DNA from: a virus
IMG/VR virus record: IMGVR_UViG_3300022555_000010
Span: 64,001 to 128,000 of that record
Strand: one strand, 5' to 3'
Length of the DNA: 64,000 bases
Every line of letters begins with the position of its first letter. Position 1 is the first letter of the stretch. A model generated the notes under the pieces. It searched no databases, was not told the origin of the DNA, and saw nothing but the letters and a program-made list of their open reading frames with translations. Shown in pieces: positions 32,701-46,117 of this stretch. The position numbers were made by a program, and so were the translations under genes.

Positions 32701-33354
32701 GGACAGGCTCCCAAAGTGGAAATCAAGAAGGAAGAGAAGCCGGCCGTGATTCGATGCAAGGTGACAGTTATCACTCCGACTTATAAGCGTGATCCGGCTG
32801 TGATTCGTCGGTGTCTGGGAAGCATGTTGATGCAGACGGAGACAGATTGGGAGCAATTCGTGTGTTCTGACGGTGCCTTGGAAGAACCCGCTCGTGATCT
32901 TGTAAATAAGATTGGAGATCCACGGATTCGGTATTTTTACACGGAAGGCAAGAAGGAAGGGGACTACGGGAACACGGTCAGATCGGAGATGATGAAGTAT
33001 GCCAGGGGGAAATATGTCCTATTCCTTGATGACGACAACCTGATTCTTCCTCATTACCTGGCGACGATGGTATCAAAGATGGAGAATTCCCCGGACTGTC
33101 AATTCGCAGTTTGCCAGATTATGCATTTTGGTCCATTGAATGAACAGGAAGAGGGGAAGGCTCCAAAAGTGTTGCTTGGGGACCCGGTAAAGTTGTATCA
33201 TATTGATCCATTGCAGGTTCTGGTCCACCGGGATATAATGCAAAAGGTTGGTTGGGACACAAAAGTTGGGTATTTATCTGATGGAGTGTCATTAGAACGA
33301 TTAGCGTCCTACAAGCTCGTTCGGGTGAATGAGGTATTGGGGATTCATATGTAA
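29746..33354 (+). CDS. multidomain glycosyltransferase (GT4/GT-B plus several GT2-like domains)
   Basis: SGG..HID; EGFGMPPAEAMACG; PVYNEG..VEADEFY; FDNGSD; ITPTYKR..FLDDDN. Confidence 0.85.
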   Translation: MKVVFVNTVDSDQPSGGAKQAYRHIDVLNQLGIDSCFAHPTPGFRYTWFDNNTPTIHTDDVELTADDFMIFGELVHEVPRVKGWDRCGKVVLCQNDYNALGGFKLDLANTRQTYREAAAILCPSENAVSNIQFIFPSARVMRFKYSFDRAPLEFSAEKESLVAVMPRKRGHEIDAVLAVIGIRWVPPGWNLLRLDNMSEKDVARALKRCAAFLSLGEKEGFGMPPAEAMACGCITVGYTGYGGNEFMLPGISFPVPDGDFIGLSRELMRIFKMPQEERLEIAHKASTFIRATYSTKDEVESIKEAWGKITRPVIDLRSDARSRMRKEVAAYVPVYNEGPYLENILKWLIPRVGEIFVAESIIPWSPNAKAGGESKAIVDKVLAECPESKNVIRYMRVGDQEDKDDPLLREAKQRNSILEKIREYGFKFVWMVEADEFYRDNEAEEMWSWFFDRVTEGARTANCHWHTYWRSIHWRIDPPENFRPNVAFLSDCKFRHGRILEAKDEQMSVEVPDRVCMIRHYSWARTPADVKNKLAAWGHSKELDPDWYEKKFMAWKPGDDMFNVHPTNPESYKMIVRCDLPLPEAMKGHPFIDMEIIEDKNKEVFVMPEVKESVKVRTNRIKVVIMHHNKPENADKLWEQLSPVFDDVEIFDNGSDPGKVPIHTTRSRENVYWTGTWNEVMATCHEYDAVWVIGCDIELMYQPEDYRTAIESSLPFGCWSPCIDGRAHDFMQEKHYGDKHPEEVKNIEGMALAMSGSLMRQIGELVPGSKIGFGQDFWMCYRSRKAGMRNIIDGRVSVHHPEGIGYNEAEAHRQMEETFGRAYGPDFRTTIFEYDQRFEKNIIGETKMPEGKRFTIVTVDNGWGLSEFIRVTSKFPDIRRIVMRKGVIDNIQMPGIEFVEYNEDLKGLVDQADIALFPRVGVANKDDYQKLLKAGVATVVRESCSQGMIEHMKTGWFFRDELWAEHWLAFLMNNPKEISRIREEAGQAPKVEIKKEEKPAVIRCKVTVITPTYKRDPAVIRRCLGSMLMQTETDWEQFVCSDGALEEPARDLVNKIGDPRIRYFYTEGKKEGDYGNTVRSEMMKYARGKYVLFLDDDNLILPHYLATMVSKMENSPDCQFAVCQIMHFGPLNEQEEGKAPKVLLGDPVKLYHIDPLQVLVHRDIMQKVGWDTKVGYLSDGVSLERLASYKLVRVNEVLGIHM

Positions 33355-33367
33355 TACTGGAGGTCTT

Positions 33368-33610
33368 ATGGCAAAGAAAGAGAAGAAGAGAGTTGTCAAT
33401 GGACGATTGATCCGAGTCTTCGAGTCCAAGAGACCTAAGTTTACGCATGTGTCGAAGGAATGGGACGCAGTTCAGGTTGAGGATGTGAATGGACACAATA
33501 GTCGTTGTCTGTTGTTTACGGCCGGTGAGATTGCGGAAGCACAAAAGAGGGCTGCGAACAATGTTGAGGAGTTGACGAAGGAAGGTTTCATAATAGAGAT
33601 TCTTGAATGA
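33368..33610 (+). CDS. hypothetical protein
   Basis: GGAGG RBS. Confidence 0.6.
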   Translation: MAKKEKKRVVNGRLIRVFESKRPKFTHVSKEWDAVQVEDVNGHNSRCLLFTAGEIAEAQKRAANNVEELTKEGFIIEILE

Positions 33611-33632
33611 TAGACCTGCATAATTTCTTGTT

Positions 33633-33665
33633 GTGCCAGGTCTGCGAACCTGGCACTTTTGTTTT
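33633..33665 (+). terminator. intrinsic terminator
   Basis: GTGCCAGG/CCTGGCAC followed by TTTTGTTTT. Confidence 0.7.
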
Positions 33666-33666
33666 C

Positions 33667-33700
33667 GGGCCTTTAGCTCAGATGGTCAGAGCAGGAAATT
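33667..33700 (+). pseudogene. tRNA 5' half (Ile2/Met-like), truncated at the anticodon loop
   Basis: GGGCCTT TA GCTC AGATGGTCA GAGC A GGAAA TT, then unrelated sequence. Confidence 0.7.
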
Positions 33701-33744
33701 AAATTATACTTGAGGTCGCTCTTACCAATTGATATGCTGTAAGG

Positions 33745-34230
33745 ATGAAAAGAAATGATGCTTTGTTACCGTATGACAATTATTGGATTTACAATCCAGT
33801 TGTAAGTGTGTCTTCAGGAAGAAGAGTTTGTGTTTTAGTTTCAAAGAAGGATGGATGTAAGACAAGTATTAGCTATGCTCGATATTTGATGTCAGTCGCT
33901 ATCGGAAGAATATTGGATTCAAAAGAGTTTGTAGATCATAAAGATGAAGACAAGTTGAATGATGACATCTTGAATTTACAAATATTGTCTCGTGGTGATA
34001 ATAATCGAAAATATAGAATATGTGCTGGGATAAAGCCTGTTAGATTTAAATTTCGATGTCCCAGTTGTAAGTGTGTGTTCGAGAAAGATAAAAGACAGTC
34101 TCATCTTTCAAAAGGAGGAGTTTTTACGGCATGTTCAAGATCTTGTGCTGGAAAAATTCGGGCAATGATGGGTCATGGATTTTTTATTGATGTCTCAGGA
34201 AATGTAATAGGGGAAATCAAGGACCCGTAG
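33745..34230 (+). CDS. HNH homing endonuclease
   Basis: VDHKDEDKLNDDILNLQIL..N, C-terminal CPSC..CSRSC. Confidence 0.8.
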   Translation: MKRNDALLPYDNYWIYNPVVSVSSGRRVCVLVSKKDGCKTSISYARYLMSVAIGRILDSKEFVDHKDEDKLNDDILNLQILSRGDNNRKYRICAGIKPVRFKFRCPSCKCVFEKDKRQSHLSKGGVFTACSRSCAGKIRAMMGHGFFIDVSGNVIGEIKDP

Positions 34231-34297
34231 CTTAATTGGTCAAAGCAGTTCTCTCATAAGGAATTGAGTCTCAGTTCGAGTCTGGGCGGGTCCACCA
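34221..34297 (+). tRNA. tRNA-Ile2/Met (CAT)
   Basis: full cloverleaf, loop CT CAT AA, CCA end. Confidence 0.9.
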
Positions 34298-34342
34298 ATA
34301 TGAAAAAAAGAAGAGACGGATAAGACTTGTCCTATTTGCAGG

Positions 34343-34741
34343 ATGATTCTTGGATTCAAACCCGGTCGCGGGGACAGATGCCAGGAATGTAAAAACACGG
34401 TAGGTGTTGAAGATGCTTATGCCTGGTATAAGATGGAACGTCAGATGGAACTACAGTCGAAGGCTTATGTCTACTTGTTTCCAGCATTGATGATTGTGGC
34501 GATGTTTGAAAGAATCTATGTTTACAAAGGTGGATACACCTTGAGGTCATTCTTGATTTACGACCTTGTTCCCTGGGGATTGTGGGTATTCAATGTATTC
34601 TTCTTATGGCCTGGGAAAGGGGTAAGTATCCCAGGGATGAAGGATAGATTAAAGAGGGCAAAGGATGATTTGTTTTTGAAGAAGTTGGGTGGCGAGCCAG
34701 TTCGTAAAAAAGGTGATTACGATGGGTTCGGGGAGTTGTGA
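34343..34741 (+). CDS. hypothetical membrane protein
   Basis: two hydrophobic segments. Confidence 0.5.
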   Translation: MILGFKPGRGDRCQECKNTVGVEDAYAWYKMERQMELQSKAYVYLFPALMIVAMFERIYVYKGGYTLRSFLIYDLVPWGLWVFNVFFLWPGKGVSIPGMKDRLKRAKDDLFLKKLGGEPVRKKGDYDGFGEL

Positions 34742-34796
34742 TACAGAAGGCATTTCAGGCGTTTTTGTATGGTAATAAAAATAGTTAAAAGATTTG

Positions 34797-34826
34797 TTGC
34801 ATCGCGATTCGCGAATAGCGTATAGT
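34797..34826 (+). promoter_or_regulatory. sigma70-like promoter of the tRNA cluster leader
   Basis: TTGCAT-18-TATAGT, ATG 6 nt downstream. Confidence 0.6.
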
Positions 34827-34832
34827 GAACGC

Positions 34833-34907
34833 ATGAAGACATCGTTGTCATATCTCTATCTGGTGAGTTGCTTATTTAATAGCAACTTCCGTAGGGGTAT
34901 GTCCTGA
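34833..34907 (+). CDS. candidate attenuator leader peptide MKTSLSYLYLVSCLFNSNFRRGMS
   Basis: 24 codons matching downstream tRNA anticodons; followed by terminator. Confidence 0.65.
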   Translation: MKTSLSYLYLVSCLFNSNFRRGMS

Positions 34908-34934
34908 TCTGACTTCATAAAACAGGATGTAGAC

Positions 34935-34973
34935 AAGCCCCACGGAGAGATCCGGAGGGGCTTTTGTGTTTTT
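34935..34973 (+). terminator. intrinsic terminator (candidate attenuator)
   Basis: AAGCCCC-A-CGGA-GAGA-TCCG-GA-GGGGCTT followed by TTGTGTTTTT. Confidence 0.75.
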
Positions 34974-35050
34974 GGGATTTGGGTTTGTCGTGACAGAATG
35001 TCGTGAGAAGTGTCGCGAGATGATATTCGCGAATAGAGAATGAATAGATT

Positions 35051-35127
35051 GGTGGGGTAGCTCAGTCTGGTAGAGCGTCGGCCTGAAGAGCCGAGCGTCG
35101 GGGGTTCAATTCCCTCCCTCACCACCA
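35051..35127 (+). tRNA. tRNA-Phe (GAA)
   Basis: cloverleaf, TCGGC-CTGAAGA-GCCGA, CCA. Confidence 0.95.
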
Positions 35128-35141
35128 AAGTTGAATAGATT

Positions 35142-35227
35142 GCTCGAATGGTGGAATGGCAGACACGTAGCCCTCAGAAGGCTATGGCCGTAAGGTTGTG
35201 GAGGTTCAAGTCCTCTTTCGAGCACCA
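35142..35227 (+). tRNA. tRNA-Leu (CAG)
   Basis: TAGCC-CTCAGAA-GGCTA, long variable arm, CCA. Confidence 0.95.
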
Positions 35228-35306
35228 GTGGATAGGGTGGAATTCCCTCGTGGGTCCGAATCCCACTCCGAGCAATCGGATGGCTGAGTGGTTTAAGGCA
35301 ATCCAC
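35228..35306 (+). ncRNA. minimal circularly permuted tRNA-like RNA
   Basis: GTGGAT/ATCCAC closing stem, V arm, T arm, TCCGA-GCAA-TCGGA closed acceptor, D arm. Confidence 0.7.
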
Positions 35307-35312
35307 AGTTTT

Positions 35313-35349
35313 GGAAGGATGGCAGAGTGGTCTAATGCGGCGGTCTTGA
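35313..35349 (+). pseudogene. 5' half of interrupted tRNA-Ser (TGA)
   Basis: GGAAGGA..GCGGTCTTGA; joins with 35960..36010 into a full tRNA. Confidence 0.9.
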
Positions 35350-35417
35350 TTATTGCAATTAAAAGTTGATAATTCAACTCTTGTAGAGAGTAGTCAATAC
35401 TATAAGGGAGAATTATT

Positions 35418-35879
35418 ATGCCAAGCAGGCTGTATTCGAGGGAAGTTCTTGAGCCGGTTGTTATAAATAGCAGATCTTTTCGAGATTTGACGATAAGGCT
35501 GGGTAAGAAACCACATGGAGGGTTGATAAATCATATAAAAAAGATTGTTGTTGGATTGGGAATAGATTGTTCGCATTTCAATCGTGGGGCTTGGAATAAG
35601 GGAGTGGTTTGGACTGGAAGAAGATCGGCTGAGGAAATTTTTTCGGGAGGAAAGATAGAGCCTGCCTATCGGTTGAAGAGGGCGTTATTAGAGATAGGTC
35701 GTGAGTGGAGTTGCGAGGTTTGTGGAATTAAAGATTGGATGGGGAAAGAAATAGACTTTGAGATTCATCATATTGATGGGGACAAAAAGAATAATACAAT
35801 TGTAAATTTGAGGATTGTTTGTCCTAATTGTCATTCTCAGAGTGGAAATTCAAGATTCAAGGGAAGGAAACATGGCTGA
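35418..35879 (+). CDS. HNH homing endonuclease
   Basis: CEVC..EIHHIDGDKKNN..NLRIVCPNCH. Confidence 0.9.
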   Translation: MPSRLYSREVLEPVVINSRSFRDLTIRLGKKPHGGLINHIKKIVVGLGIDCSHFNRGAWNKGVVWTGRRSAEEIFSGGKIEPAYRLKRALLEIGREWSCEVCGIKDWMGKEIDFEIHHIDGDKKNNTIVNLRIVCPNCHSQSGNSRFKGRKHG

Positions 35880-35954
35880 GTGGTCTAAGGCGGGTGTTTT
35901 GAAAACATCAGATGTTAATAGCATCCGTAGGTTCAAATCCTACTGTTTCCGCCA
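35866..35954 (+). tRNA. tRNA-Ser (TGA)
   Basis: GGAAACA/TGTTTCC-GCCA, loop TT TGA AA. Confidence 0.92.
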
Positions 35955-35959
35955 GTTGA

Positions 35960-36010
35960 AAACCGGAGTACCGAGAGGTATCGGGGGTTCAAATCCCTCT
36001 CCTTCCGCCA
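35960..36010 (+). pseudogene. 3' half of interrupted tRNA-Ser (TGA)
   Basis: AAACCGG, V arm, T arm, TCCTTCC-GCCA complementary to GGAAGGA at 35313. Confidence 0.9.
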
Positions 36011-36013
36011 GTT

Positions 36014-36101
36014 TTTCGAGGATCTTTTCGAGGCATTTAACTCGTTGAGATTCAAATGTTTGTGAGAATTTTCAGTCAAGATTTCGAGGATCTTTTCGAG
36101 G
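36014..36101 (+). repeat. 20-bp direct repeat TTTCGAGGATCTTTTCGAGG x2
   Basis: copies at 36014-36033 and 36082-36101, internally 12-bp periodic. Confidence 0.7.
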
Positions 36102-36211
36102 ATCTGATTGAAGACCTTATCCCTGGTGGATATTGTAATGGCAAATTGACAACTGAATAGTGAATAGCAAGGCGGCTGATCCGGGTTCTTGTACCGGGTC
36201 AGTCGTTGTAT

Positions 36212-36288
36212 GGGCGATTAGCTCAATTGGTCAGAGCGTCTGGTTTACACCCAGAAGGTTATCGGTTCGACCCCGGTATTGCCCACCA
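36212..36288 (+). tRNA. tRNA-Val (TAC)
   Basis: TCTGG-TTTACAC-CCAGA, CCA. Confidence 0.93.
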
Positions 36289-36300
36289 TTTTTTTTATTT

Positions 36301-36328
36301 CCGTATTCTGGGGAAGTTATGGCAATGT
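36301..36328 (+). promoter_or_regulatory. phage promoter-like motif, leaderless
   Basis: ATG 36335 six nt downstream. Confidence 0.75.
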
Positions 36329-36334
36329 GTAGGT

Positions 36335-36616
36335 ATGAACTACTACGATGAAATGAATAAAGTGCCGGAACATCTCAAGGGGATTGCTGATGTCGTTAAG
36401 ACACACACCCATCGAGATGTAAATGAGAAAGAGGCGTCCGAGATTGCCTTCGCACTCTTAGAGCTTGAAGGGAATAAAGTCATAATCAAAAAGATTGCGG
36501 ATTACATTCAGAGTCAGAATCAGCAGTTGCGATGGGCTTACGAGAGACACAACAAGTTCGCCGATGATGTTTTTCAATGGGTTCGCTGGGCGGCTAATTG
36601 GACATTGAGGAAATAA
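36335..36616 (+). CDS. hypothetical protein
   Basis: leaderless start after motif. Confidence 0.55.
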   Translation: MNYYDEMNKVPEHLKGIADVVKTHTHRDVNEKEASEIAFALLELEGNKVIIKKIADYIQSQNQQLRWAYERHNKFADDVFQWVRWAANWTLRK

Positions 36617-36625
36617 GGGAAATAT

Positions 36626-37072
36626 ATGGCACACAAACGCAAAGACACTTTGACGAAGTCTCCGGACTGGTGGAGACATCTTCGGCCTTTCAACAAACGG
36701 AAGGTGGCCAAGGCGGAACGTCGTGCAGCCAGGGCGGAAATCACGGAAGAGGACTATGAGGATGCCAAGGGGCTTGGTCTTCACAAAGAGCCATCGAAGA
36801 TGAGATGGTTGAGGGAGACGGATGGGGATTCGATTATTCCCCAGGGTTGTTACTGTTACGATCAGAAGGGAATTTGTCCTTACTGGGACAAGGCGGAGAA
36901 TAAACAGGAACAGAATAACGGGTATTGCTGGTTTCAGATGAGCGGGGATTGGGACGAGAAGGGCTGTGATCTTCTTTGGGATCAGTGTAAAAACTGCGGG
37001 AAGAACGATGTTGATGTTCCCGAGGGTATAATACAGGTGATAGCAGAGAAAGATGAGGAACCAAAATGTTAG
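36626..37072 (+). CDS. hypothetical Cys-rich protein
   Basis: IPQGCYCY..CPYW..GYC..LLWDQCKNCG. Confidence 0.6.
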   Translation: MAHKRKDTLTKSPDWWRHLRPFNKRKVAKAERRAARAEITEEDYEDAKGLGLHKEPSKMRWLRETDGDSIIPQGCYCYDQKGICPYWDKAENKQEQNNGYCWFQMSGDWDEKGCDLLWDQCKNCGKNDVDVPEGIIQVIAEKDEEPKC

Positions 37073-37341
37073 AAGTTGATTTAAGGAATGCTTTTGAGCC
37101 GGGGAGTAATGCTGACAATTTCTCGGTGTTGTTGCTTCGGTTGATTGCCAAGGCAGACGGGGACAACAAACTGAAGTTAAGTTTGGGTTATCCTGTTCAT
37201 GTGAAGGCAGTTTGGATTTATCAGAATCAGTGTCCGTATCGGGATATGAATCGGAGTGTGGTTGACTGGGCGGCAATCGCAACCCAGGCTTCCGAAGGAA
37301 AGGATTGTGATGAATGTCAAAATCATTTGGAGAGGCTTTAA
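37066..37341 (+). CDS. hypothetical protein
   Basis: GAGGA RBS. Confidence 0.5.
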   Translation: MLEVDLRNAFEPGSNADNFSVLLLRLIAKADGDNKLKLSLGYPVHVKAVWIYQNQCPYRDMNRSVVDWAAIATQASEGKDCDECQNHLERL

Positions 37342-37667
37342 GCCAGGGCATCCCGATAGTGTTGCTTCGTAAGGGTGATTGTCCGGAGGTTATTGGTGAG
37401 CCGGGGAAGGAACCAGAGGCTTTGGATACTTTGGATAAGATGAAGATAGTGAAGTTGACACGACCCCAGGATGGTCGAAAACCGAAGGGTGCGATACAGA
37501 ATTTCTCCGAGAAGCCGGTTCTGACAGATGAGGAACTTCTGGAAGAGTATGGTTGGGAGATGGAATGCTTGAGTCCGTTTGAGTTGAGGCATAAGGATGG
37601 GTCATTCTTATGCGGGAATCAGGCGAAAGATCTATTGAGGCAGTATCGAGAGGATGAGAAGAAATGA
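37314..37667 (+). CDS. hypothetical protein
   Basis: ORF. Confidence 0.5.
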   Translation: MSKSFGEALSQGIPIVLLRKGDCPEVIGEPGKEPEALDTLDKMKIVKLTRPQDGRKPKGAIQNFSEKPVLTDEELLEEYGWEMECLSPFELRHKDGSFLCGNQAKDLLRQYREDEKK

Positions 37668-37669
37668 TT

Positions 37670-37705
37670 CCCCGCATGGTGAAATTGGCAGACACAACGG
37701 ACTTA
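37670..37705 (+). pseudogene. 5' half of tRNA-Leu (TA-), truncated within the anticodon
   Basis: CCCCGCA TG GTG AAATTGGCAGA CAC A ACGGA CT TA. Confidence 0.8.
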
Positions 37706-37765
37706 CAATGCAGTGATGTCTTAATTATTATTTTATAATTCTTATCATAGTAGGGAGATACTACT

Positions 37766-38326
37766 ATGAAAAAGACTGATAATGAGATACGTGAGGCGGT
37801 TGTTGGATCTATTACGTATGCCGGGATTTTGATTAAATTAGGTCTTGTCCCAATGGGGGGAAATTACAAGACAATAAAGAGAAGAATACGAATTCTTGGT
37901 ATTTCGACAGAACATCTTAAGGGGAAGTCATGGAATCGGGGAGGAGTTGGAAAACGAAGTTATGCGAAGAAGTCCTTGGAGAGTGTAATGATAGAAGATT
38001 CTTCGTATTCGACTTTTAAACTCAAGAAGAGATTGTTCAGAGAGGGAATTTTTAAGAAAAAATGCAACAAGTGTGGAGGAGAACAGTGGCTGGGAAAGCC
38101 AATGCCATTAGAATTAGAACATAAAAATGGGAATAGTCACGATCACAGGATAGAGAATTTAGAGATACTTTGTCCCAACTGTCATTCTTTTACGGATACA
38201 TATCGAGGTCGGAAGTCTCGTGGGAAAAAGATTATGAAGGAAGAACGACGATGTTCTAACTGTAATGGTCGGGTGTCGTTAGGGTCGAAATCTGGATTGT
38301 GCTATTTATGTTCTCCAAAGTTTTGA
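37766..38326 (+). CDS. HNH homing endonuclease
   Basis: CNKC..LELEHKNGNSHDHRIENLEILCPNCH; similar to 35418. Confidence 0.9.
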   Translation: MKKTDNEIREAVVGSITYAGILIKLGLVPMGGNYKTIKRRIRILGISTEHLKGKSWNRGGVGKRSYAKKSLESVMIEDSSYSTFKLKKRLFREGIFKKKCNKCGGEQWLGKPMPLELEHKNGNSHDHRIENLEILCPNCHSFTDTYRGRKSRGKKIMKEERRCSNCNGRVSLGSKSGLCYLCSPKF

Positions 38327-38330
38327 AAAT

Positions 38331-38407
38331 GCCGGAGTGGTCCAATTGGCAGAGGCAACAGTTTTAAAAATTGTGTGTTGCGGGTTCGACTCCCGCCTTC
38401 GGCACCA
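38331..38407 (+). tRNA. tRNA-Leu (TAA), short variable loop
   Basis: ACAGT-TTTAAAA-ATTGT, 77 nt, CCA. Confidence 0.85.
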
Positions 38408-38537
38408 AGGAGAAACAAGATGACGGACGAGGAGATCGGACGGAGGTTGTTGAATATTGACGCCATTGCATATTCTCAATGGAGTTATTTGACAAGAACT
38501 TTGGGATGTATTGTGGTTGATGACGAAAGAGACTTTT

Positions 38538-38996
38538 ATGAAATTCAAGATACCGTGTGAGTGGACGGTGAGGACGGTCGAGGTGATCGAAGCCAAAAAT
38601 TTGGTAGATGCACAAGATAAGGCTTTCAAGTTGACTCGACCAAAGACATTGGAAGGCTGCAAGATTGAAGATCCTATTGGTGGGGGTCTGGATTGGAAGA
38701 CATTCAACAAGATGTATCCACCAAAGCCTCCGGCTGATCCGATGGAGGGTTGGACAAGGACAACTGATCCTGGGCCGTATCAGGGCGGGCAATGGGTGAA
38801 GGAGGCGAATGGGTGTGAGGTATTTGTCACCGGGGATACTGGGCCGATAGAGGTCGGGATGGGAATGACAACCTATTCGTGGAGTGTGTCGAAGCCTGGT
38901 CGTAATGACACTCTAACCTCGAAGAAGGATTTCGATAGGATTGAAGAAGCTCGTGATGCGGCATTGAAGGCATCGGAACGATGGAGTAAGATGTGA
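38538..38996 (+). CDS. hypothetical protein
   Basis: ORF. Confidence 0.55.
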   Translation: MKFKIPCEWTVRTVEVIEAKNLVDAQDKAFKLTRPKTLEGCKIEDPIGGGLDWKTFNKMYPPKPPADPMEGWTRTTDPGPYQGGQWVKEANGCEVFVTGDTGPIEVGMGMTTYSWSVSKPGRNDTLTSKKDFDRIEEARDAALKASERWSKM

Positions 38997-39169
38997 AGCC
39001 TGAAGTGATTAAGGGGATCAGGAAGCAGTCTGGGATGACTCAGACGGAGTTTGCAAAGGCGATGAGAGTATCATTCGCGACTGTAAACAGATGGGAGAAA
39101 GGACATTTTGTTCCACTCCCGGACAGACTGGATCGTTTGAAAGAGTTTAAACAAGGAATCGTGAAATGA
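38993..39169 (+). CDS. small XRE/Cro-like HTH regulator (58 aa, not in ORF track)
   Basis: IRKQSGMTQTEFAKAMRVSFATVNRWEKG; GTG start overlapping upstream stop. Confidence 0.75.
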   Translation: MKPEVIKGIRKQSGMTQTEFAKAMRVSFATVNRWEKGHFVPLPDRLDRLKEFKQGIVK

Positions 39170-39537
39170 AAAACAGGTTTGCGGAGATCGCGGAGAGAGT
39201 GGCGGCTAAGTATCAAGACATTGGTCATCAGCCTGGAGATAGACTCTGGTGGGTTGGCAATGATGGTAAGGTCAAGACCTTGGTGTCAACTGGTAAGGAG
39301 TTCCACCACGATATTGACGAGAATATCGATATGGATGCTCGGTGGCGTGGCCGTTTGGAAAAGGGTGGTATGTGTACTCTGTTACCACCGGTGCATCTGT
39401 ATGCGAAGTTCAAGGATGTGGAGGATATGCCTCTCCCGGATTCAGCGATGACGAAGTTGGAGAAACTGGGAGCGAAGCACTTCTATCTGGATACTCAGCG
39501 GGGTATGAATCGGATCAGTAAGACGGTTGTCCGGTGA
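39166..39537 (+). CDS. hypothetical protein
   Basis: coupled ORF. Confidence 0.55.
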   Translation: MKNRFAEIAERVAAKYQDIGHQPGDRLWWVGNDGKVKTLVSTGKEFHHDIDENIDMDARWRGRLEKGGMCTLLPPVHLYAKFKDVEDMPLPDSAMTKLEKLGAKHFYLDTQRGMNRISKTVVR

Positions 39538-39549
39538 ACTGGAGATTTT

Positions 39550-39585
39550 GGAAGAATGCCGTAACTGGTAGCGGGTCTGATTCGA
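39550..39585 (+). pseudogene. 5' half of tRNA-Ser (CGA), truncated after the anticodon
   Basis: GGAAGAA TG CCG TAACTGGTAG CGG G TCTGA TT CGA. Confidence 0.8.
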
Positions 39586-39630
39586 TTGTAATAATTGTTT
39601 GATATTTGCACCTAAAGTGGAGGTGCGAAT

Positions 39631-40479
39631 ATGAATAAGTGCAGATTTTGTGGAAAAGGCGGATTTGAAAAGCGGGGACTTCGAGAACACGAGAAGTATT
39701 GTCGGATAGTTCATCGTTATGTTGATATTGCGAAGGAAGAACTGGAAACAGGATTGTTGCTATGTGAGACGGGATGTGGTCTGCCAGCCAGATTTACATT
39801 GAAAGTTGGAAAGGTTTGTTGTTCTGAGTTTGTTCAGTCTTGCCCGGAGACAAAACGAAAAAACAGCCTTTCAAAGAGTGGTGAGCATAATCCAAGAGGC
39901 ATGTTGGGTAAAAAGACCGGAAGACTCGGAAGGAAGAATGTGGATGTCTTTGGTGTTGTCGTGGCAGGTCGAATAAGTAAAAAGATTTCCAATAGGTTGA
40001 CTGGTAAAGTTACAGGGATGGCATCAACAGTTGGAAATGAGATTGAGAGAGTTCGTAAGATTTCTGATGCGGCAAAAAAGAATACTTACGGAAATTATGG
40101 AGGATACAAGAGGGGAGCAGGAAGAGGGAGACACGGATGGTATAAAGGTATCTGGTTTGACTCTTCCTGGGAATTAGCGTGGATCATATTCAATATTGAT
40201 CACGGGATTCAGTTTGAGAGAAATAGTGATAGGTTTGAATATCAATGGGATGGAAAGACTCATAAGTATCTTCCAGACTTCAAAATGGCTGATGGGAAGT
40301 ATGTAGAAGTTAAATCGTGGTTGAATGACAAGGTGGTTGCAAAATTAAAGGCGTGTCCAGGAGTTCTTGTTTTAATGAAGAAGGAGATGGAGCCGTTTAT
40401 TCAGTATGCAATTAGAAAATATGGTAAAGACTTTGTTAAGGATTTTGAGATTAAAAGGAAGAATGTCCGAACTGGATAA
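39631..40479 (+). CDS. PD-(D/E)XK-type putative homing endonuclease
   Basis: DSSWEL..YLPDF..YVEVK; N-terminal Cys motifs. Confidence 0.75.
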   Translation: MNKCRFCGKGGFEKRGLREHEKYCRIVHRYVDIAKEELETGLLLCETGCGLPARFTLKVGKVCCSEFVQSCPETKRKNSLSKSGEHNPRGMLGKKTGRLGRKNVDVFGVVVAGRISKKISNRLTGKVTGMASTVGNEIERVRKISDAAKKNTYGNYGGYKRGAGRGRHGWYKGIWFDSSWELAWIIFNIDHGIQFERNSDRFEYQWDGKTHKYLPDFKMADGKYVEVKSWLNDKVVAKLKACPGVLVLMKKEMEPFIQYAIRKYGKDFVKDFEIKRKNVRTG

Positions 40480-40544
40480 GGAGTCTGCCTCGAAAGCAGA
40501 TGTACCGAAAGGTATTGGGGGTTCGAGTCCCTCTTCTTCCGCCA
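40457..40544 (+). tRNA. tRNA-Ser (CGA)
   Basis: TCTGC-CTCGAAA-GCAGA, V arm, GCCA. Confidence 0.92.
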
Positions 40545-40747
40545 CACCGAGTGAGATTGTTTATATCAGTAAGGGAGTTTTGTTGAAGGAGATGGCGGAT
40601 CTGGGCATCAATATCAACAGTGTTACGGCTGATGGGATAGTGAGTTCGGCAAAGATGGTGATTGTTGATGGGATTGTGGTGAAGAATCGGGATGGTAAGA
40701 CCGGGGCGAATGTCTCGGGAACGATAGTGGTCGATGATGAGAAAGAT

Positions 40748-40822
40748 TGGCGAGTAGCTCAATGGTAGAGTATCCGGCTGTTAACCGGGTTGTTGGAGGT
40801 TCAAGTCCTCTCTCGCCAGCCA
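40748..40822 (+). tRNA. tRNA-Asn (GTT)
   Basis: TCCGG-CTGTTAA-CCGGG, GCCA. Confidence 0.93.
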
Positions 40823-40828
40823 AATATT

Positions 40829-41152
40829 ATGAAACAAGAACTGATAGATCTATGGCAGCAGATGGCCGATCTGACAAAGGAAAAGTGTCAGAAGTCCTGT
40901 AGGAATATGGGAGCATGTTGCAGTGGAGAATACTGTGAACTCGCCGCCGAGACGATGGAGAAGGCCGGTGAGAAGGTTCCCCCGATGCCTTTCGTAGTGG
41001 ACGGGAAGTGTTCTATTCCTCCTCATTACAGGCCGATATGTGCATTACATCAGTGTGATATTGGCAGTCTTGGGTTTATGAAGGGGGACCCGGACTTGAC
41101 AAAGAGATATTTTGATTTGAGATTCAAGTTGGAAGACTTGGCAGAATTTTAA
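40829..41152 (+). CDS. hypothetical Cys-rich protein
   Basis: C..C..CC..C..RPIC..C cluster. Confidence 0.55.
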   Translation: MKQELIDLWQQMADLTKEKCQKSCRNMGACCSGEYCELAAETMEKAGEKVPPMPFVVDGKCSIPPHYRPICALHQCDIGSLGFMKGDPDLTKRYFDLRFKLEDLAEF

Positions 41153-41315
41153 TTCCGATAGTACCTTCAGCAATGGGATACTTCTAAAAAAACAGGTGCC
41201 CGAAAGGGCGTGAAGGTTCGAGTCCTTCCTCTGTGGCTAATAACTGCGGAGTGGTGGAATTGGCAGACACGCCTGCAAAAAAAGACCCATTGTGATTTTC
41301 GGTATTGTAGGAATT
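41151..41315 (+). ncRNA. YrlA-type Y RNA-like RNA (long terminal stem plus permuted tRNA-Leu-like domain)
   Basis: terminal stems AATTCC/GGAATT, ATAGTACC/GGTATTGT, CAATGGG/CCCATTG; inner order V arm, T arm, closed acceptor, D arm. Confidence 0.75.
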
Positions 41316-41321
41316 TTATTT

Positions 41322-41349
41322 CCGTATTGAGACAAGACATCTGCAATGT
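41322..41349 (+). promoter_or_regulatory. phage promoter-like motif
   Basis: CCGTAT-N15-GCAATGT. Confidence 0.75.
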
Positions 41350-41371
41350 ATGTGCATTAGGAGATGAGATT

Positions 41372-41590
41372 ATGTTGGGACTTAAAAAGAGGGCTGAGGA
41401 TCGTAAACTGGAAAATGATCTATACTTATCTCGTCGTGGGTATGATTACGCGGCCGGGAGATTGTTACGAGGTGGGAATGTCAAGAATCTCTATGAGGAG
41501 GCGGCGAGATGTGATGATCATAGAGAGCCTTTTACGATTGGGGTTTGTGATGCAGTCAGGGACTGGGAGAAGAAAGGGAAAGTGGGATGA
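41372..41590 (+). CDS. hypothetical protein, paralogue of 43484
   Basis: MLGLKKRAE..RRGYD..AG..LRG. Confidence 0.55.
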   Translation: MLGLKKRAEDRKLENDLYLSRRGYDYAAGRLLRGGNVKNLYEEAARCDDHREPFTIGVCDAVRDWEKKGKVG

Positions 41591-42336
41591 AAGTGTTTTT
41601 AACGAGTGGGGGAACAAAGACCCCGATAGACAGTGTCAGGCACGTAGGGAATATGTCAAAGGGGACATTTGGTTGTCATCTCTGTAATGCCTTTTTGAAA
41701 ATGGGGCATACGGTTCACTATTTTTACGCCAAGGACAGTAAGGCACCTCACGATTTCAGGCTGAATCTCAAAGAGGTTGGTTCGAGAGAAGCGATGGAGA
41801 CATTATTGGAGAGCTATGATTTCCTCGATGATTTTGGGGATCGATACATACCAATGGAATATTCTGATTTCAACTCCTATGCAGAAGGTCTGAAAAAGAT
41901 GCTTGGTTCTGGTTTGTTTGATTTGCCGGATGTTGTGGTTTTAGCGGCGGCAGTAAGTGATTATGCCCCGGTAAAGCACGAAGGCAAGATCAGTTCGGAT
42001 CTGGATAAGATGGTCATCGAGTTCGAGAAGACTCCGAAGTTGATCAGGCAGATTCGGGATTTCTGTCCGAAAACATTCCTGGTGGGGTTCAAGTTGCTTG
42101 TTGGAAGCACCCAGGACGAGTTGCTGGAGGCGATGAAGAAGCAGATGAAAGTTGCGAAGACGGATATGGTTGTCGGGAATGACCTGAGGGATATCCGGGC
42201 GGACAAACATTCGTTGACTATTTTGAGGGCAGACGGGGGAATCTCCGGGTTCTCTGGGATGTCGGGTGATAAATTGGCGGAATATCTTGTGGGATCTATT
42301 GATATCTTACAGGGAAGAAAGAAACGGTTGGCATGA
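41587..42336 (+). CDS. coaB: phosphopantothenate-cysteine ligase (CoaB-like)
   Basis: LTSGGT..IDSVR..NMSKGTFG, AAAVSDY, KISS, LVGFKL, VVGND. Confidence 0.85.
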   Translation: MKVFLTSGGTKTPIDSVRHVGNMSKGTFGCHLCNAFLKMGHTVHYFYAKDSKAPHDFRLNLKEVGSREAMETLLESYDFLDDFGDRYIPMEYSDFNSYAEGLKKMLGSGLFDLPDVVVLAAAVSDYAPVKHEGKISSDLDKMVIEFEKTPKLIRQIRDFCPKTFLVGFKLLVGSTQDELLEAMKKQMKVAKTDMVVGNDLRDIRADKHSLTILRADGGISGFSGMSGDKLAEYLVGSIDILQGRKKRLA

Positions 42337-43481
42337 ATATTTTACTTGGATTGACAGGAAGTGTGGCGACAAAGATTGCCCCGAAGATCATTGAGGCTTT
42401 GGAGGCGATTCCGAATTGTTCTGAGGTCAGGGTGATAATGACTGACAAGGCGGCAATGTTTTACAACCCGGAGGCATTGGCCAGGGTTTCAGGGGTCAAG
42501 GTCTACACGGAGGGAGACGAGTGGACCTGGCGGAAGGAAATCAAGGCGATCGGTCATGCTACGGTTCAATGTCTTGCAACAGACAAATGGGAAAAGGGAC
42601 TACCCATTCAGCATATTGAGTTGGTGAAGTGGGCTTCTTGTCTGGTGATTGCTCCGGCGACGGCGAACACGATTGGGAAGATGGCCAATGGGCTGTGTGA
42701 CAATCTGCTGACTTCGGTGTTTACGGCCTGGGATCGGAATCGGCCGGTGATTATGGCACCGGCGATGAACACCATGATGTTACATTCGCCTGCGGTAGTT
42801 CATAATATGGAGACGTTGCAGAAGATGGGTGTTCTGATGGTGCCGACAGTCAAGAAGGAATTGGCTTGTGGGGACACAGGAGATGGGGCCTTGGCAGATG
42901 CCTCGGATATTGCTCGGGTGGCCGCCAGGGAGATTCAGTGGCTATTTCCGTTCAATCTGGTGTCACCGATCAGGGGAATCCCGGTTGGGAGTCACCCAGG
43001 AGCCTTTGGAGCAATGAGGAAGCATGACAGACATTGTGGAGTGGACTTGTATTGCAACAATGGGACGCCGGTTGTTTTGGTTGAAGATGGCCGGGTGGTA
43101 AGCATTGAACCATTCACCGGGAAAGATGCTGGATGTCCTTGGTGGCTGGATACGAAGGTTGTGAAGGTGGAAGGGGCCAGTGGGGTCGTTTGTTACGGAG
43201 AGATTGAGCCTCGGGACTATGTTCAGGTTGGAAAGGTGTATCGGAAGGGGTGTCAGATTGGGAATGTGATCCCGGTGTTGAAGCCGGAGAAGCATCGTCC
43301 GGATATCCCTGGGCATTCGTGTTGTATGCTTCATCTTCAGATGTTCAGTCACGGGACATATAATCTGAAGGATGAGTTCAACAGTCACGAAGAATTGCCG
43401 GACTATATCATTGATCCGACACCGTATCTGTTGGGGGCGGTTGGGGCAAAGGATATTAAGAAGTTGGATGTGAAGGTGTAA
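42333..43481 (+). CDS. coaC: phosphopantothenoylcysteine decarboxylase (CoaC) fused to an M23 peptidase-like domain
   Basis: GLTGSVA, HIEL, APATANT, PAMN, LACGDTGDG; C-terminal HCGVD..MLH. Confidence 0.8.
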   Translation: MNILLGLTGSVATKIAPKIIEALEAIPNCSEVRVIMTDKAAMFYNPEALARVSGVKVYTEGDEWTWRKEIKAIGHATVQCLATDKWEKGLPIQHIELVKWASCLVIAPATANTIGKMANGLCDNLLTSVFTAWDRNRPVIMAPAMNTMMLHSPAVVHNMETLQKMGVLMVPTVKKELACGDTGDGALADASDIARVAAREIQWLFPFNLVSPIRGIPVGSHPGAFGAMRKHDRHCGVDLYCNNGTPVVLVEDGRVVSIEPFTGKDAGCPWWLDTKVVKVEGASGVVCYGEIEPRDYVQVGKVYRKGCQIGNVIPVLKPEKHRPDIPGHSCCMLHLQMFSHGTYNLKDEFNSHEELPDYIIDPTPYLLGAVGAKDIKKLDVKV

Positions 43482-43483
43482 CA

Positions 43484-43699
43484 ATGTTTGGATTTAAGAA
43501 AAGAGCCGAGGCAAAGAGGCACGAAGAGAACCCGAGTCCTAGGAGGAGAGGATATGATTCTATCGCAGGGGGAATATTGAGGGGTTGGAATATTGATTCA
43601 CACATTGATAATTTTATGTTGGAGGGACCGGGAAGTGTTGAGGATGGCGAGGAAGAGGCGATAAGGGATTGGATGAAAATGAGAGGATTTAAACAATGA
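43484..43699 (+). CDS. hypothetical protein, paralogue of 41372
   Basis: MFGFKKRAE..RRGYD..AG..LRG. Confidence 0.55.
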   Translation: MFGFKKRAEAKRHEENPSPRRRGYDSIAGGILRGWNIDSHIDNFMLEGPGSVEDGEEEAIRDWMKMRGFKQ

Positions 43700-43828
43700 G
43701 AAAGTCTACAGCGAGTCCAAAGAGTACGAAGATCAAGAATGGTTGCACTCGGACGAAGAGGAGTTCAGGGTGTGTCGGGTCGGCAATTGCTCGGACTCGT
43801 GAACGAAGGAAGTGTCGGTAAGTATTTT

Positions 43829-43858
43829 GACGGGTTAGCCAAGTGGTTAGGCAGGTCT
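43829..43858 (+). pseudogene. 5' half of a tRNA-Cys-like gene, truncated at the anticodon loop
   Basis: GACGGGT TA GCC AAGTGGTTA GGC A GGTCT; same layout as the downstream Cys tRNA. Confidence 0.7.
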
Positions 43859-43915
43859 TGAAAAAGCATTGACTTGACAGGCCAGTAATAGCATTATTCA
43901 GGGAATGGAGGTGCT

Positions 43916-44629
43916 ATGAAAAAGAACGAAGAAATTAAAATCAAGGCAAGAGATTTGAGGTCGCTCGGATTATCTGTTGGAGATATTTCAAAAAAACTTT
44001 CAGTCTCTTATGGCTCAGTTGGTAACTGGGTTCGTGACATTATTCTGGACGAAGAACAGAAGAAGAATATCTCAAATATTCGTCAAAAGGAAGTTCAGCG
44101 TGTTTTCGATCTTCCCTTAGAGATTTTTGATAAAATGATTGAAGACGGCTTAAGCCAGAAAATGATTGCTGATAAATTGGGAGTATCTTTGGGAATAATG
44201 AGTCGAGTGTTCAAATCGAAGGGGCTATCAGGAAGAACGCCTAAAGGTCAGAGACCCGTATTTGGTTTGAGCGATTGTAAGATTTGTGGAGTTCCCAGAA
44301 AAACATGGCGAGGAGGAACTTGTCCTACTTGTGTGTCGAAAATTAGACGTTTAAAAACGAAGATTAGGGCAGTAAAGGAGTTGGGTGGGAAATGTAAAAG
44401 TTGTTCGTGGGAACCAACAAGTCGTGAGGTTGCGGCGATGGAATTCCATCATAAAGGTGGAGATAAAAAAGAATTTGAGATAGGTAAGAAGATGAATCAT
44501 AAGTGGGAAACTTTACTTCCAGAAATCAGGAAGTGTAAATTGTTGTGTTCTCGATGTCACAGGATTGAGCACAGTCGAGTAGATCCATTGTTTGATTTTA
44601 TATTTGATCAAGATGATAAGATGCGATGA
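43916..44629 (+). CDS. HTH plus HNH homing endonuclease
   Basis: two HTH-like segments; CKSC..MEFHH..KEF..CKLLCSRCH. Confidence 0.8.
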   Translation: MKKNEEIKIKARDLRSLGLSVGDISKKLSVSYGSVGNWVRDIILDEEQKKNISNIRQKEVQRVFDLPLEIFDKMIEDGLSQKMIADKLGVSLGIMSRVFKSKGLSGRTPKGQRPVFGLSDCKICGVPRKTWRGGTCPTCVSKIRRLKTKIRAVKELGGKCKSCSWEPTSREVAAMEFHHKGGDKKEFEIGKKMNHKWETLLPEIRKCKLLCSRCHRIEHSRVDPLFDFIFDQDDKMR

Positions 44630-44693
44630 CCGAGAGGTTAGGTGGTTCTCTGCAAAAGAACATAGGCTGGTTCGAGTCCAGTTCGCATCTCCA
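44620..44693 (+). tRNA. tRNA-Cys (GCA)
   Basis: GTTCT-CTGCAAA-AGAAC, TCCA end. Confidence 0.93.
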
Positions 44694-44702
44694 AAATTTT
44701 TC

Positions 44703-44789
44703 GGGGAGTTAGCCAAGCGGCAACGGCGGCAGACTGTAAATCTGTTTCTCTAACGAGGTTCAAAGGTTCGAGTCCTTTACTCCCCACCA
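44703..44789 (+). tRNA. tRNA-Tyr (GTA)
   Basis: GCAGA-CTGTAAA-TCTGT, V arm, CCA. Confidence 0.93.
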
Positions 44790-44827
44790 ATTATTAGTGA
44801 TCAGTAATATATCGGTGAACAGTAATA

Positions 44828-45073
44828 ATGAGCAGAAGGATCAGATACACCAAGCAGAGAGCCTTATTGGGATCTTTGATTACAAGGGATGGTCTAAAAT
44901 GTCACTGGTGTCATAGGGAATGTGACCCGAAGGCTAATAATGGAAGTCCTGGATATCCGACCGTGGAGCATCTGAAGAGGCAATGTGAGGGTGGAACGGA
45001 TGACCCGGTGAATCTGGTGGTGGCTTGTTTGAAGTGTAATAGTGGGAGACATTTGCCTGGGTGGACTCCGTGA
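44828..45073 (+). CDS. small HNH endonuclease
   Basis: RDG..CHWC..TVEHL..GGTDD..NLVVACLKCN. Confidence 0.8.
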   Translation: MSRRIRYTKQRALLGSLITRDGLKCHWCHRECDPKANNGSPGYPTVEHLKRQCEGGTDDPVNLVVACLKCNSGRHLPGWTP

Positions 45074-45293
45074 TTGATGGAGTGGTCAATGGATTGATTC
45101 AGGAAGCGTCCTACCCGGATTGCAGTTATTGGCAGTTGCATATTTGTGGATGTGGGCAGGCTTCGGTTCGGCATCTTGTTGAGGGAGATCACAAGGGCTG
45201 GATCATGGGATGTAATTGTCGGACCGGGCTGGATTTGTTGGGATGGTTGCCGATAGGAGTTGTCCCGGCAGTGGATGAGGTAGATGAGTCGTT

Positions 45294-45383
45294 GGAAGGA
45301 TGGCAGAGTGGTAATGCAGCGGTTTGCTAAACCGTACAAGGTGTAAAAGTCTTGCGTGAGTTCAAGTCTCACTCCTTCCGCCA
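45294..45383 (+). tRNA. tRNA-Ser (GCT)
   Basis: GCGGT-TTGCTAA-ACCGT, V arm, GCCA. Confidence 0.93.
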
Positions 45384-45415
45384 AAATGTGTTTGGGGTGG
45401 AACCCTGATATAACG

Positions 45416-45539
45416 GTCCGTGATGCTGAAAGCTGAAGCGGGTAGCTGTTGATTGCTTCCAAAGCGACACAGAAAGTCGGTTGACTGTAGTGCGAGGTCA
45501 GCCTTTTAAATAGGCAGTAAAAACCTGCATCGGACGCCA
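45416..45539 (+). ncRNA. structured tRNA-like ncRNA candidate ending in GCCA
   Basis: GTCCG..CGGAC-GCCA terminal stem, hairpin with TTCCAAA loop, GGTTGAC/GTCAGCC hairpin. Confidence 0.4.
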
Positions 45540-45547
45540 ATTATCTT

Positions 45548-45575
45548 CCGTATTCTGTGGTACAATCTGCAATGT
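45548..45575 (+). promoter_or_regulatory. phage promoter-like motif, leaderless
   Basis: ATG 45582 six nt downstream. Confidence 0.75.
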
Positions 45576-45581
45576 CTTTAT

Positions 45582-45752
45582 ATGAAACTCCCAAACTACT
45601 TCTTAGATGATTGCTGTAAGAAGAAGCCGGGAGTCGAGTGGGATGGTGGGGAGATCACGGCTAAGTGCCGCAAGTGTGGGGACTTGGTCACAAATCGAGA
45701 GATGTGGAAATTGATGATTGCCTGGAATAAGAAAAAAAGAGGGTTGAAATGA
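45582..45752 (+). CDS. 56-aa Cys-containing leaderless ORF (not in ORF track)
   Basis: MKLPNYFLDDCC..CRKC..AWN; ATGA overlap with next gene. Confidence 0.55.
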   Translation: MKLPNYFLDDCCKKKPGVEWDGGEITAKCRKCGDLVTNREMWKLMIAWNKKKRGLK

Positions 45753-46117
45753 AGGACCAATCGGACTGGATATCGTTGATGAATGACAATGCTTTCATCT
45801 CTCTTGCAGATGTTAAGAAATGGTTGAATATTGGAACGGCCTGGCAAATGAGGAGATTGGTTGAGTATCAGTCGTTTCCGATGCCGGCATATGGGACTTC
45901 TCAAACGGCCAGGATGTCTCGGGGATGTCGGTGGAGAGTCGGAGATATCAGGGAATGGTTGAAGACGGGTAAATGTGTGAATGGTTGTGCTGAGATGTCA
46001 GAAAGACTTACGACCAGGATTGCGTCGGCTGAACGCAGAAGGTTGAACGGGAATCGGATTGCGAAGATTTACAGGGATTTGGATAGTAAGGGGTTAAAGC
46101 TTGGCGATAGGCCTTAA
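45749..46117 (+). CDS. AlpA/excisionase-like DNA-binding protein
   Basis: SLADV..FPMP..RWRVGDIREWL. Confidence 0.55.
   Translation: MKDQSDWISLMNDNAFISLADVKKWLNIGTAWQMRRLVEYQSFPMPAYGTSQTARMSRGCRWRVGDIREWLKTGKCVNGCAEMSERLTTRIASAERRRLNGNRIAKIYRDLDSKGLKLGDRP

Follow-up and report, generated by a model that had tools for sequence, protein, structure and literature searches.

A probable homing-endonuclease scar in a phage tRNA-Ser(UGA) gene split by an HNH gene and a spare tRNA of the same anticodon

The split tRNA-Ser(UGA) gene and its insert

We describe a bacteriophage tRNA-Ser(UGA) gene whose two halves flank a 610-bp insert that carries an HNH endonuclease gene and a second, complete tRNA gene of the same anticodon. 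The locus lies in a stretch of 64,000 nucleotides (nt), here called the window, that corresponds to bases 64001 to 128000 of a 151,773-bp IMG/VR virus record (IMGVR_UViG_3300022555_000010; completeness estimate, 72%). Coordinates are those of the window unless stated otherwise, and the features of this locus and of the related cassettes described below are all on its plus strand. The record has 16 tRNA genes, all within positions 34.2 to 49.7 kb of the window, and the GC skew is strongly positive across the whole window. Searches of the phage database returned short tRNA and HNH matches only, with no close relative of this phage among deposited phages.

The 5' half of the outer tRNA-Ser(UGA) (35313 to 35349; tRNA positions 1 to 36) ends with ...GGTCTTGA in the anticodon loop, and its 3' half (35960 to 36010; tRNA positions 37 to 76 plus CCA) is recovered by an nhmmer profile of 3' halves (E = 0.007). 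The original prediction, made from the letters of the window, had proposed that the two pieces join into an 88-nt tRNA-Ser with a perfect acceptor stem and one mismatch in the anticodon stem. The joined 37 + 51 nt bear this out: ARAGORN calls them tRNA-Ser(tga), with 7 of 7 acceptor pairs and a long variable arm, and places the mismatch (G27.G43) at the top of the anticodon stem. For intact comparators, we searched with a degenerate pattern derived from the 5' half and the anticodon arm; it gave more than 120 matches each in metagenomes and in named genomes, all of them ordinary bacterial tRNA-Ser(UGA) genes from many phyla. The joined tRNA can be aligned with these genes gaplessly along its full 88 positions. 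The best match to it, an intact bacterial tRNA-Ser(UGA) from a Kiritimatiellia genome (locus L188), agrees at 79 of 88 positions, and the alignment includes a compensatory change in both strands of the acceptor stem. The gapless match and the paired acceptor-stem change argue that the two pieces are one former gene, cut once, rather than chance look-alikes. The best full-length comparators (Kiritimatiellia, Verrucomicrobiota) are too weakly matched for a host to be named.

The motif TTGA occurs at both junctions, at 35346 to 35349 on the left, where it forms tRNA positions 33 to 36 (U33 and the anticodon UGA), and at 35956 to 35959 on the right, where it follows a single G in the five-base right junction (35955 to 35959); intact bacterial tRNA-Ser(UGA) genes carry one copy. 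The repeat had been taken to define the boundaries of the element. The boundaries are indeed located at these junctions, with a precision limited to the 4-nt ambiguity of TTGA itself. The string CCAGTT is also found directly 3' of the outer tRNA (36008 to 36013), and part of the right junction may come from the trailer of a donor tRNA.

The insert (35350 to 35959) consists of a leader, the HNH gene, the inner tRNA, and five bases (G and TTGA), so that the replacement tRNA lies inside it, as had been predicted. The A+T-rich leader of 68 nt (35350 to 35417) has a ribosome-binding site, AAGGGAG, 7 nt before the ATG; it showed no RNA family match, and a promoter scan gave weak sigma-70-like matches only. 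The HNH gene (35418 to 35879) encodes a homing endonuclease of 153 amino acids (aa), designated P0001, which matches Pfam HNH and HNH_3 (E = 2e-6 for HNH, above the Pfam cutoff) and the family phrog_10822 (E = 2e-37). In the protein, a DNA-binding part at the N terminus precedes a C-terminal CxxC...HH...N...CPNCH motif, which is intact, with all 12 of the 12 family-invariant residues, including both CxxC pairs, H118, and N130; a PDB sequence search returned nothing useful. Its stop codon (TGA, 35877 to 35879) falls 12 to 14 nt inside the inner tRNA. This inner tRNA-Ser(UGA) (35866 to 35954) is complete, 89 nt long, and CCA encoded; it is called by ARAGORN and scores 55.5 bits against the Rfam tRNA model, within the range of the other array tRNAs, and no other Ser(UGA) gene of the 151.8-kb record is intact.

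The inner and outer tRNAs are 74% identical. The first 19 nt and the acceptor stem of the outer tRNA are the same as those of the phage tRNA-Ser(GCT) at 45294, and its 3' half is 82 to 88% identical to that of the tRNA-Ser(CGA) at 40457. The inner tRNA has an acceptor stem of its own and a G+C content of 0.45, the lowest of the 16 tRNAs. Thus, the outer gene, which shares its stem and 19 nt with a neighbor, looks resident, and the inner gene, the outlier in composition and acceptor stem, looks imported.

Upstream, the outer 5' half abuts an older truncated 5' piece of a Ser-type tRNA (35276 to 35312), in which 35280 to 35299 are 95% identical to positions 7 to 26 of the inner tRNA. This nested arrangement suggests that there may have been at least two successive replacements at the site. 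The nested piece is in turn preceded by an orphan 3' piece of a Leu-type tRNA, comprising a variable arm, a T arm, and an acceptor strand (35228 to 35275; weak nhmmer 3'-half match at 35246 to 35272), that stands directly after a tRNA-Leu(CAG). Downstream, the flank at 36011 to 36211 was considered as a decayed HNH gene and rejected, as a gap-tolerant alignment scored no better than with unrelated HNH genes (z = 2.3). Only three copies of the 12-mer GATCTTTTCGAG exist in the window, and a span of 630 bp holds them all: the first (35473 to 35484) falls within the HNH open reading frame (ORF), and the other two (36021 to 36032 and 36089 to 36100) belong to a repeat with 68-bp spacing that follows shortly after the outer 3' half.

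Beyond the locus, tRNAs with a long variable arm make up 10 of the 16 in the record (five Leu, four Ser, and one Tyr). An RNA ligase of the RtcB type is encoded outside the window (G000:C1:1422-2483), in an open frame of 476 aa that scores 162 bits above the Pfam cutoff. Together, RtcB and a tRNA set rich in Leu, Ser, and Tyr suggest tRNA repair or replacement against host defenses that cut tRNAs. The record gave no match to RNA ligase families of the T4 type; for one of these, PF09511, the control genomes were blank as well, which makes that search uninformative.

Sister cassettes and relatives of the HNH protein

The split locus is the second of five cassettes in the window that share one layout. 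In all five, a tRNA 5' half lies 45 to 70 nt upstream of the nuclease start and ends in the anticodon loop, less clearly so in cassettes 1 and 5, and a complete tRNA gene follows the nuclease. Cassette 1 (33667 to 34297) comprises a 5' half at about 33667 to 33699 (z = 4.2), an HNH ORF (33745 to 34230; phrog_14913), and a tRNA-Met(CAT) (34221 to 34297). Cassette 3 (37670 to 38407) has the 5' half of a tRNA-Leu(UAA) that ends with ...GGACTT/A (z = 4.8), an HNH ORF (37766 to 38326), like that of cassette 2 from phrog_10822, and a tRNA-Leu(TAA) (38331 to 38407). At the DNA level, the HNH gene of this cassette is weakly similar to those of T5-like phages. Its downstream tRNA (anticodon TAA) is 77 nt long with a short variable arm, which is unusual for leucine and leaves its identity uncertain. 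Cassette 4 (39550 to 40544) joins the 5' half of a tRNA-Ser(CGA) ending in ...TTCGA (39550 to 39585; z = 7.3), an ORF (39631 to 40479) whose 282-aa product has no HNH match and only weak endonuclease matches, and a tRNA-Ser(CGA) (40457 to 40544). Cassette 5 (43829 to 44693) contains the 5' half of a type II tRNA with the loop ...GGTCTTGAAAA (43829 to 43866), an ORF combining helix-turn-helix and HNH domains (43916 to 44629; phrog_2255), and a tRNA-Cys(GCA) (44620 to 44693).

The upstream halves resemble the 5' half of the tRNA downstream, with z scores of 4.2 to 10.9 for cassettes 1 to 4 and a marginal signal (P of about 0.03) for cassette 5, and no such half precedes any of 11 free-standing relatives in other phages. 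In cassettes 2 and 4 the 5' half breaks off after position 36 (...CTTGA and ...TTCGA, respectively), and in cassette 3 it breaks off at 34/35 (...CTT/A), which is the U34/A35 group I intron site of tRNA-Leu(UAA). The nucleases of the five cassettes belong to at least three families, and the one layout that they have in common therefore points to a shared process and not to shared ancestry of the genes. The downstream tRNA of cassette 4 is 82 to 88% like the outer Ser(UGA) in its 3' half and 68% in its 5' half, an inequality that is expected of a recombinant tRNA.

Only cassette 2 keeps a 3' half. BLAST and searches with the nhmmer 3'-half profile confirmed the earlier impression that the other four have none directly after their tRNA. 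Orphan 3' pieces are present elsewhere in the array, at 35228 to 35275 (described above) and at about 41170 to 41230. The latter is part of a region (41170 to 41285) in which 4 nt separate an orphan 3' piece with variable arm, T arm, and acceptor strand from a downstream orphan Leu-type 5' half; no nuclease gene adjoins these pieces.

We then surveyed the genomic settings of P0001 relatives in IMG/VR (33 loci, 26 of them distinct). As the long-intron mode of ARAGORN falsely pairs neighboring tRNAs of an array, only those calls were kept in which a nuclease gene was enclosed and each end was an orphan half. Arrays of tRNA genes (at least three tRNAs within 3 kb) are the setting of 19 of the 26 distinct relatives, and in 10 of the 26 a tRNA of varied isotype begins between -35 and +10 nt from the stop codon. 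Two of the 26 (L011 and L008) lie inside a tRNA-Leu(UAA) split at U34/A35, the group I intron site. In L011, an Rfam Intron_gpI match of 61 bits follows directly after the ORF; in L008, the ORF sits in a loop of the same core as read by eye, with no Rfam match among the matches listed. A further two loci, L024 and L029 (the latter with a duplicate, L030), have a split tRNA that encloses a complete tRNA and an HNH gene, here in the order tRNA-HNH, and in both the tRNA halves pair as a 7-bp acceptor stem. The proteins of the family align over their full length, and P0001 is 31 to 32% identical to the intron-borne relatives, with the 12 invariant residues. Because members occur in introns, free-standing before tRNAs, and inside split tRNAs, this is one family in three layouts.

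The closest relatives of P0001 are P0003 (69% identical; absent from IMG/VR), P0004 (58%), and P0006 (53%). More distant relatives of 216 to 220 aa and about 40% identity (P0010 to P0044) are encoded on many Streptomyces chromosomes. A phage tRNA-Asn(GTT) (L006:2019-2301) has a 206-nt insert, without an ORF, after the anticodon; by eye the insert resembles the group I core of L008 and L011, with no Rfam intron match among the matches listed. Arrays with P0001 relatives also hold a ROOL RNA (L014:1875-2456; 311 bits) and two tmRNA genes (L023:5106-5455 and L027:639-1012).

Invasion, rearrangement, and splicing as explanations of the locus

We consider it likely that the locus is the scar, at the level of DNA, of an invasion by a free-standing HNH homing-endonuclease cassette whose spare tRNA replaces the gene that was broken. 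P0001 has several marks of a free-standing homing endonuclease, namely, a recognized family, an intact catalytic motif, and no detectable enclosing self-splicing intron or intein. Homing endonucleases prefer conserved target sites, and the stretch CGGTCTTGAAAACCGG at the proposed target is conserved among the tRNA-Ser(UGA) genes of many bacterial phyla. The resident gene would have been broken in the DNA of its anticodon loop, at positions 33 to 36, most likely by P0001 or a close relative, and the break would have been repaired by copying a foreign unit made up of the leader, the HNH gene, and a diverged tRNA-Ser(UGA).

In the general route that we envisage, the nuclease would cleave a sensitive tRNA allele in the DNA of its anticodon loop, the broken end on the 3' side would pair with the donor tRNA, and copying would proceed leftwards through the 5' part of the donor tRNA and the nuclease gene. 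The left side, with no homology beyond the tRNA, would be sealed by end joining, giving a scar in the order 5' half, nuclease, tRNA. The other four cassettes would represent this commoner outcome, in which the 3' half was lost to recombination within the 3' portion of the tRNA and the 5' half stayed behind, and the retained 5' half could later act as a left homology arm in homing. In cassette 2, the incoming tRNA may have been too diverged, and the right side would then have been closed without homology after the donor CCA-G(TT), so that both resident halves and a duplicated TTGA were left behind. Since the inner and outer tRNAs are only 74% alike, at least the right join is better explained by end joining, by use of microhomology, or by the filling in of a 4-nt staggered cut than by homologous recombination in the tRNA. 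As to the TTGA repeat, either fill-in of a 4-nt 5' stagger across positions 33 to 36 or annealing on 2 to 4 nt of microhomology fits. At present, the split outer gene would be dead, and the inner tRNA, presumably devoid of the cleavage site, would supply tRNA-Ser(UGA).

Several points weigh against invasion by a mobile cassette. No uninterrupted allele of the gene turned up when IMG/VR and Joint Genome Institute (JGI) metagenomes were searched for exact matches, or among contigs of sequencing runs, and intact bacterial tRNA-Ser(UGA) genes are distant stand-ins for one. Polymorphism for presence or absence, which is the hallmark of mobile elements, is thus not found at the locus in the searched data. 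Searches with the inner tRNA sequence found no donor, and searches with three flanking proteins found no relatives of the phage. The putative cut site is read solely from the ends of the scars (5' halves ending at positions 34 to 36 in cassettes 2, 3, and 4). The TTGA duplication may be in part a coincidence, as the odds of a 4-nt match in a fixed register are about 1 in 256 and the outer tRNA is itself followed by GTT. Finally, on gene content, the RtcB gene of the phage might allow tRNA pieces to be rejoined at the RNA level.

The alternative that survives best, which we nonetheless regard as unlikely, is a rearrangement independent of the nuclease, in which illegitimate recombination or replication slippage between similar tRNAs of the dense array put a piece consisting of the HNH gene and a tRNA into a second tRNA gene, and the HNH gene was a mere passenger. 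The array does hold tRNA fragments with no adjoining nuclease (35228 to 35312 and 41170 to 41285), and TTGAAAAC and CCGCCAGTT, common to both tRNAs of the locus, are short homologies at which a template switch could occur. If tRNAs recombined at random, however, the longest shared stretches, in the D arm and T arm, should be preferred to positions 33 to 36, whereas the anticodon-loop break recurs in five cassettes, and in L024 and L029 of unrelated phages, always directly beside a nuclease gene. Moreover, the intron-borne members of the family target the same anticodon loop.

A transposable element that generated a target-site duplication was also considered and rejected: the sole ORF is that of the HNH protein and no terminal inverted repeats were detected, the 4-bp direct repeat being the one feature compatible with it.

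A functional intron, with 610 nt removed from the transcript, the outer halves rejoined, and both tRNAs working, appears very improbable. Removal could be envisaged through a degenerate or unrecognized ribozyme, or through the action of tRNA-processing enzymes on the inner tRNA followed by sealing by RtcB. In favor of such an intron, true group I introns that interrupt phage tRNA-Leu(UAA) genes house members of the same HNH family (L011 and L008), the outer halves have both stayed intact, and RtcB is among the products of the phage. The original prediction had preferred an insertion scar in the DNA to an intron, and this preference is upheld by the lack of a ribozyme match, the lack of room for one, the wrong letters at the junctions, and an unremarkable fold. 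An Rfam search of 33000 to 50500 at E ≤ 10 found no group I, group II, or other family except tRNA, whereas this kind of search does recover the core of L011, at 61 bits. The ORF and the inner tRNA occupy 537 of the 610 nt of the insert, and the group I core of the intron-borne relative L011 takes about 196 nt; the remaining 73 nt (68 + 5) therefore leave no space for a ribozyme. Among the five possible registers within TTGA, none combines a 5' exon ending in U with an intron ending in G, and the model fold of a 721-nt precursor RNA was no better than those of its shuffles (z = -0.97).

Removal by protein enzymes fares no better. The record has no splicing endonuclease (tRNA_int_endo), and the features of a bulge-helix-bulge intron are wanting: the outer tRNA has the bacterial form, a 37/38 register is impossible, and no helix in the fold joins the junctions. 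As for tRNA processing, the inner tRNA stands at the 3' end of the insert instead of spanning its ends, so the RNase P cut, by established enzymology, would fall at 35865/35866, at a distance of 516 nt from the 5' junction, and the 3' half would retain GTTGA after 3' trimming. Cleavage by RNase P or RNase Z yields 3'-OH and 5'-phosphate ends, which are not substrates of RtcB, and the ligase would thus be unable to join them. An intron would also have to be reconciled with the sister cassettes, as four of the five cassettes have no 3' half to which an exon could be joined. On these grounds of sequence, splicing at the split tRNA-Ser(UGA) is probably absent.

An assembly artefact, through the false joining of two strain variants or of two different tRNA-Ser genes, might be suspected because tRNA genes are repeats and the same metagenomes hold many tRNA-Ser genes with the same 5' part (seen as loose ends at 35349), but it is excluded for practical purposes by independent Logan contigs from other samples, in three studies, that cross both junctions with zero differences (X2 record 3, covering 35062 to 36108; X6 record 18; X4 records 11 and 12), and the sequences shared at the junctions, of 4 to 11 nt, should be far shorter than assembler word sizes, to judge from the 31-letter words of the run index. 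No contig of these runs joins 35349 to 35960; apparent joints hold other letters between the two sides and derive from other tRNA genes.

Relation to known systems and wider meaning

The SegB endonuclease of phages T4 and T6, of the GIY-YIG type, cuts inside tRNA genes and drives the inheritance of its own gene along with neighboring tRNA genes, and even the amplification of the latter; processing of the tRNAs in the common transcript is believed to restrict its expression (PMC2330249 and PMC13096335). The tRNA region of phage T5 encodes the HNH enzymes F-TflI and F-TflII as well as F-TflIV (Akulenko et al. 2004, as relayed in PMC2330249), and bacterial tRNA arrays are likewise accompanied by HNH genes (PMC8421152). 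The present locus resembles SegB and the F-Tfl enzymes in having a nuclease gene, outside any intron, among phage tRNA genes, here with the HNH stop codon inside the next tRNA. SegB, by contrast, cuts near the 3' end of the tRNA, in the T arm, has intact genes on either side, and gives rise to no tRNA halves, whereas the scars described here stop within the anticodon loop, both halves of the physically split resident gene persist, a spare tRNA of the same anticodon accompanies the nuclease, and cleavage and homing are putative.

A second comparison is with group I introns in the anticodon loop of bacterial tRNA genes, classically tRNA-Leu(UAA) at U34/A35, which may carry homing endonuclease genes. 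The introns of L011 and L008 share with the present locus the HNH family and the target region in the tRNA gene. In contrast to them, the cassettes of the window have no ribozyme, and a complete tRNA gene stands where L011 has the ribozyme core; function would be kept by replacement of the gene and not by splicing. In the Aeromonas phage Aeh1, the free-standing mobE reportedly landed in the essential gene nrdA, leaving that gene in pieces without an intron. MobE is mentioned in the work on SegB (PMC2330249). In such fractured genes (PMC2677866), the protein pieces reassemble or split inteins rejoin them, whereas the broken tRNA here would be bypassed by the spare copy in the insert. The Lak megaphages have "enigmatic" tRNA introns, one of which possibly encodes a tRNA itself (Devoto et al. 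2019, PMC6784885). Where that account deals with these inserts it reads them as introns and names no endonuclease gene (PMC6784885); here the insert has an HNH gene and the data favor a scar. A full-text literature search found no paper on a nuclease gene with a spare tRNA of the same anticodon inside a split tRNA gene and none that links such a layout to intron-borne relatives.

Homing endonucleases have been thought to persist in essential genes only within self-splicing introns or inteins, or else between genes. The locus would be an unusually clean case of a third route, in which the gene is broken and a replacement is brought along. As the one cassette of the five with both halves, it fixes the insertion point (anticodon-loop positions 33 to 36) and the content of the cassette, and the joined outer gene and the inner gene offer a concrete pair of substrates for the enzyme. 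The three settings of the family could inform how mobile introns and free-standing endonucleases interconvert. Scars of this kind would account for tRNA fragments and for false "long-intron" tRNA calls in phage genomes, and they bear on the turnover of phage tRNA repertoires, which is relevant to host defenses that target tRNAs.

More tentatively, and giving it somewhat less than an even chance, we propose that to split and replace is a general homing strategy of several nuclease families, in which a spare tRNA immune to cleavage takes the place of the ribozyme and the 5' half and the spare tRNA serve as portable homology arms. On this proposal, at least the phrog_10822 lineage would have arisen from endonucleases of tRNA-Leu(UAA) group I introns by exchanging the ribozyme and 3' exon for a whole tRNA. 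If so, cassettes could enter any phage or array with a similar tRNA, whatever its flanks, and they would be a main driver of turnover, of fragments, and of "enigmatic introns" in phage tRNA arrays.

Two further features of the window were recorded. A sixth, small HNH ORF (44828 to 45073; 81 aa) lies between tRNA-Tyr and tRNA-Ser(GCT), with no tRNA half adjoining it. Remote from the array, a 127-nt segment (13549 to 13675) matches the Rfam tRNA model with 34.7 bits; ARAGORN does not call it in default mode and, in intron mode, gives it a poor tRNA fold with a 36-nt insert within the anticodon loop.

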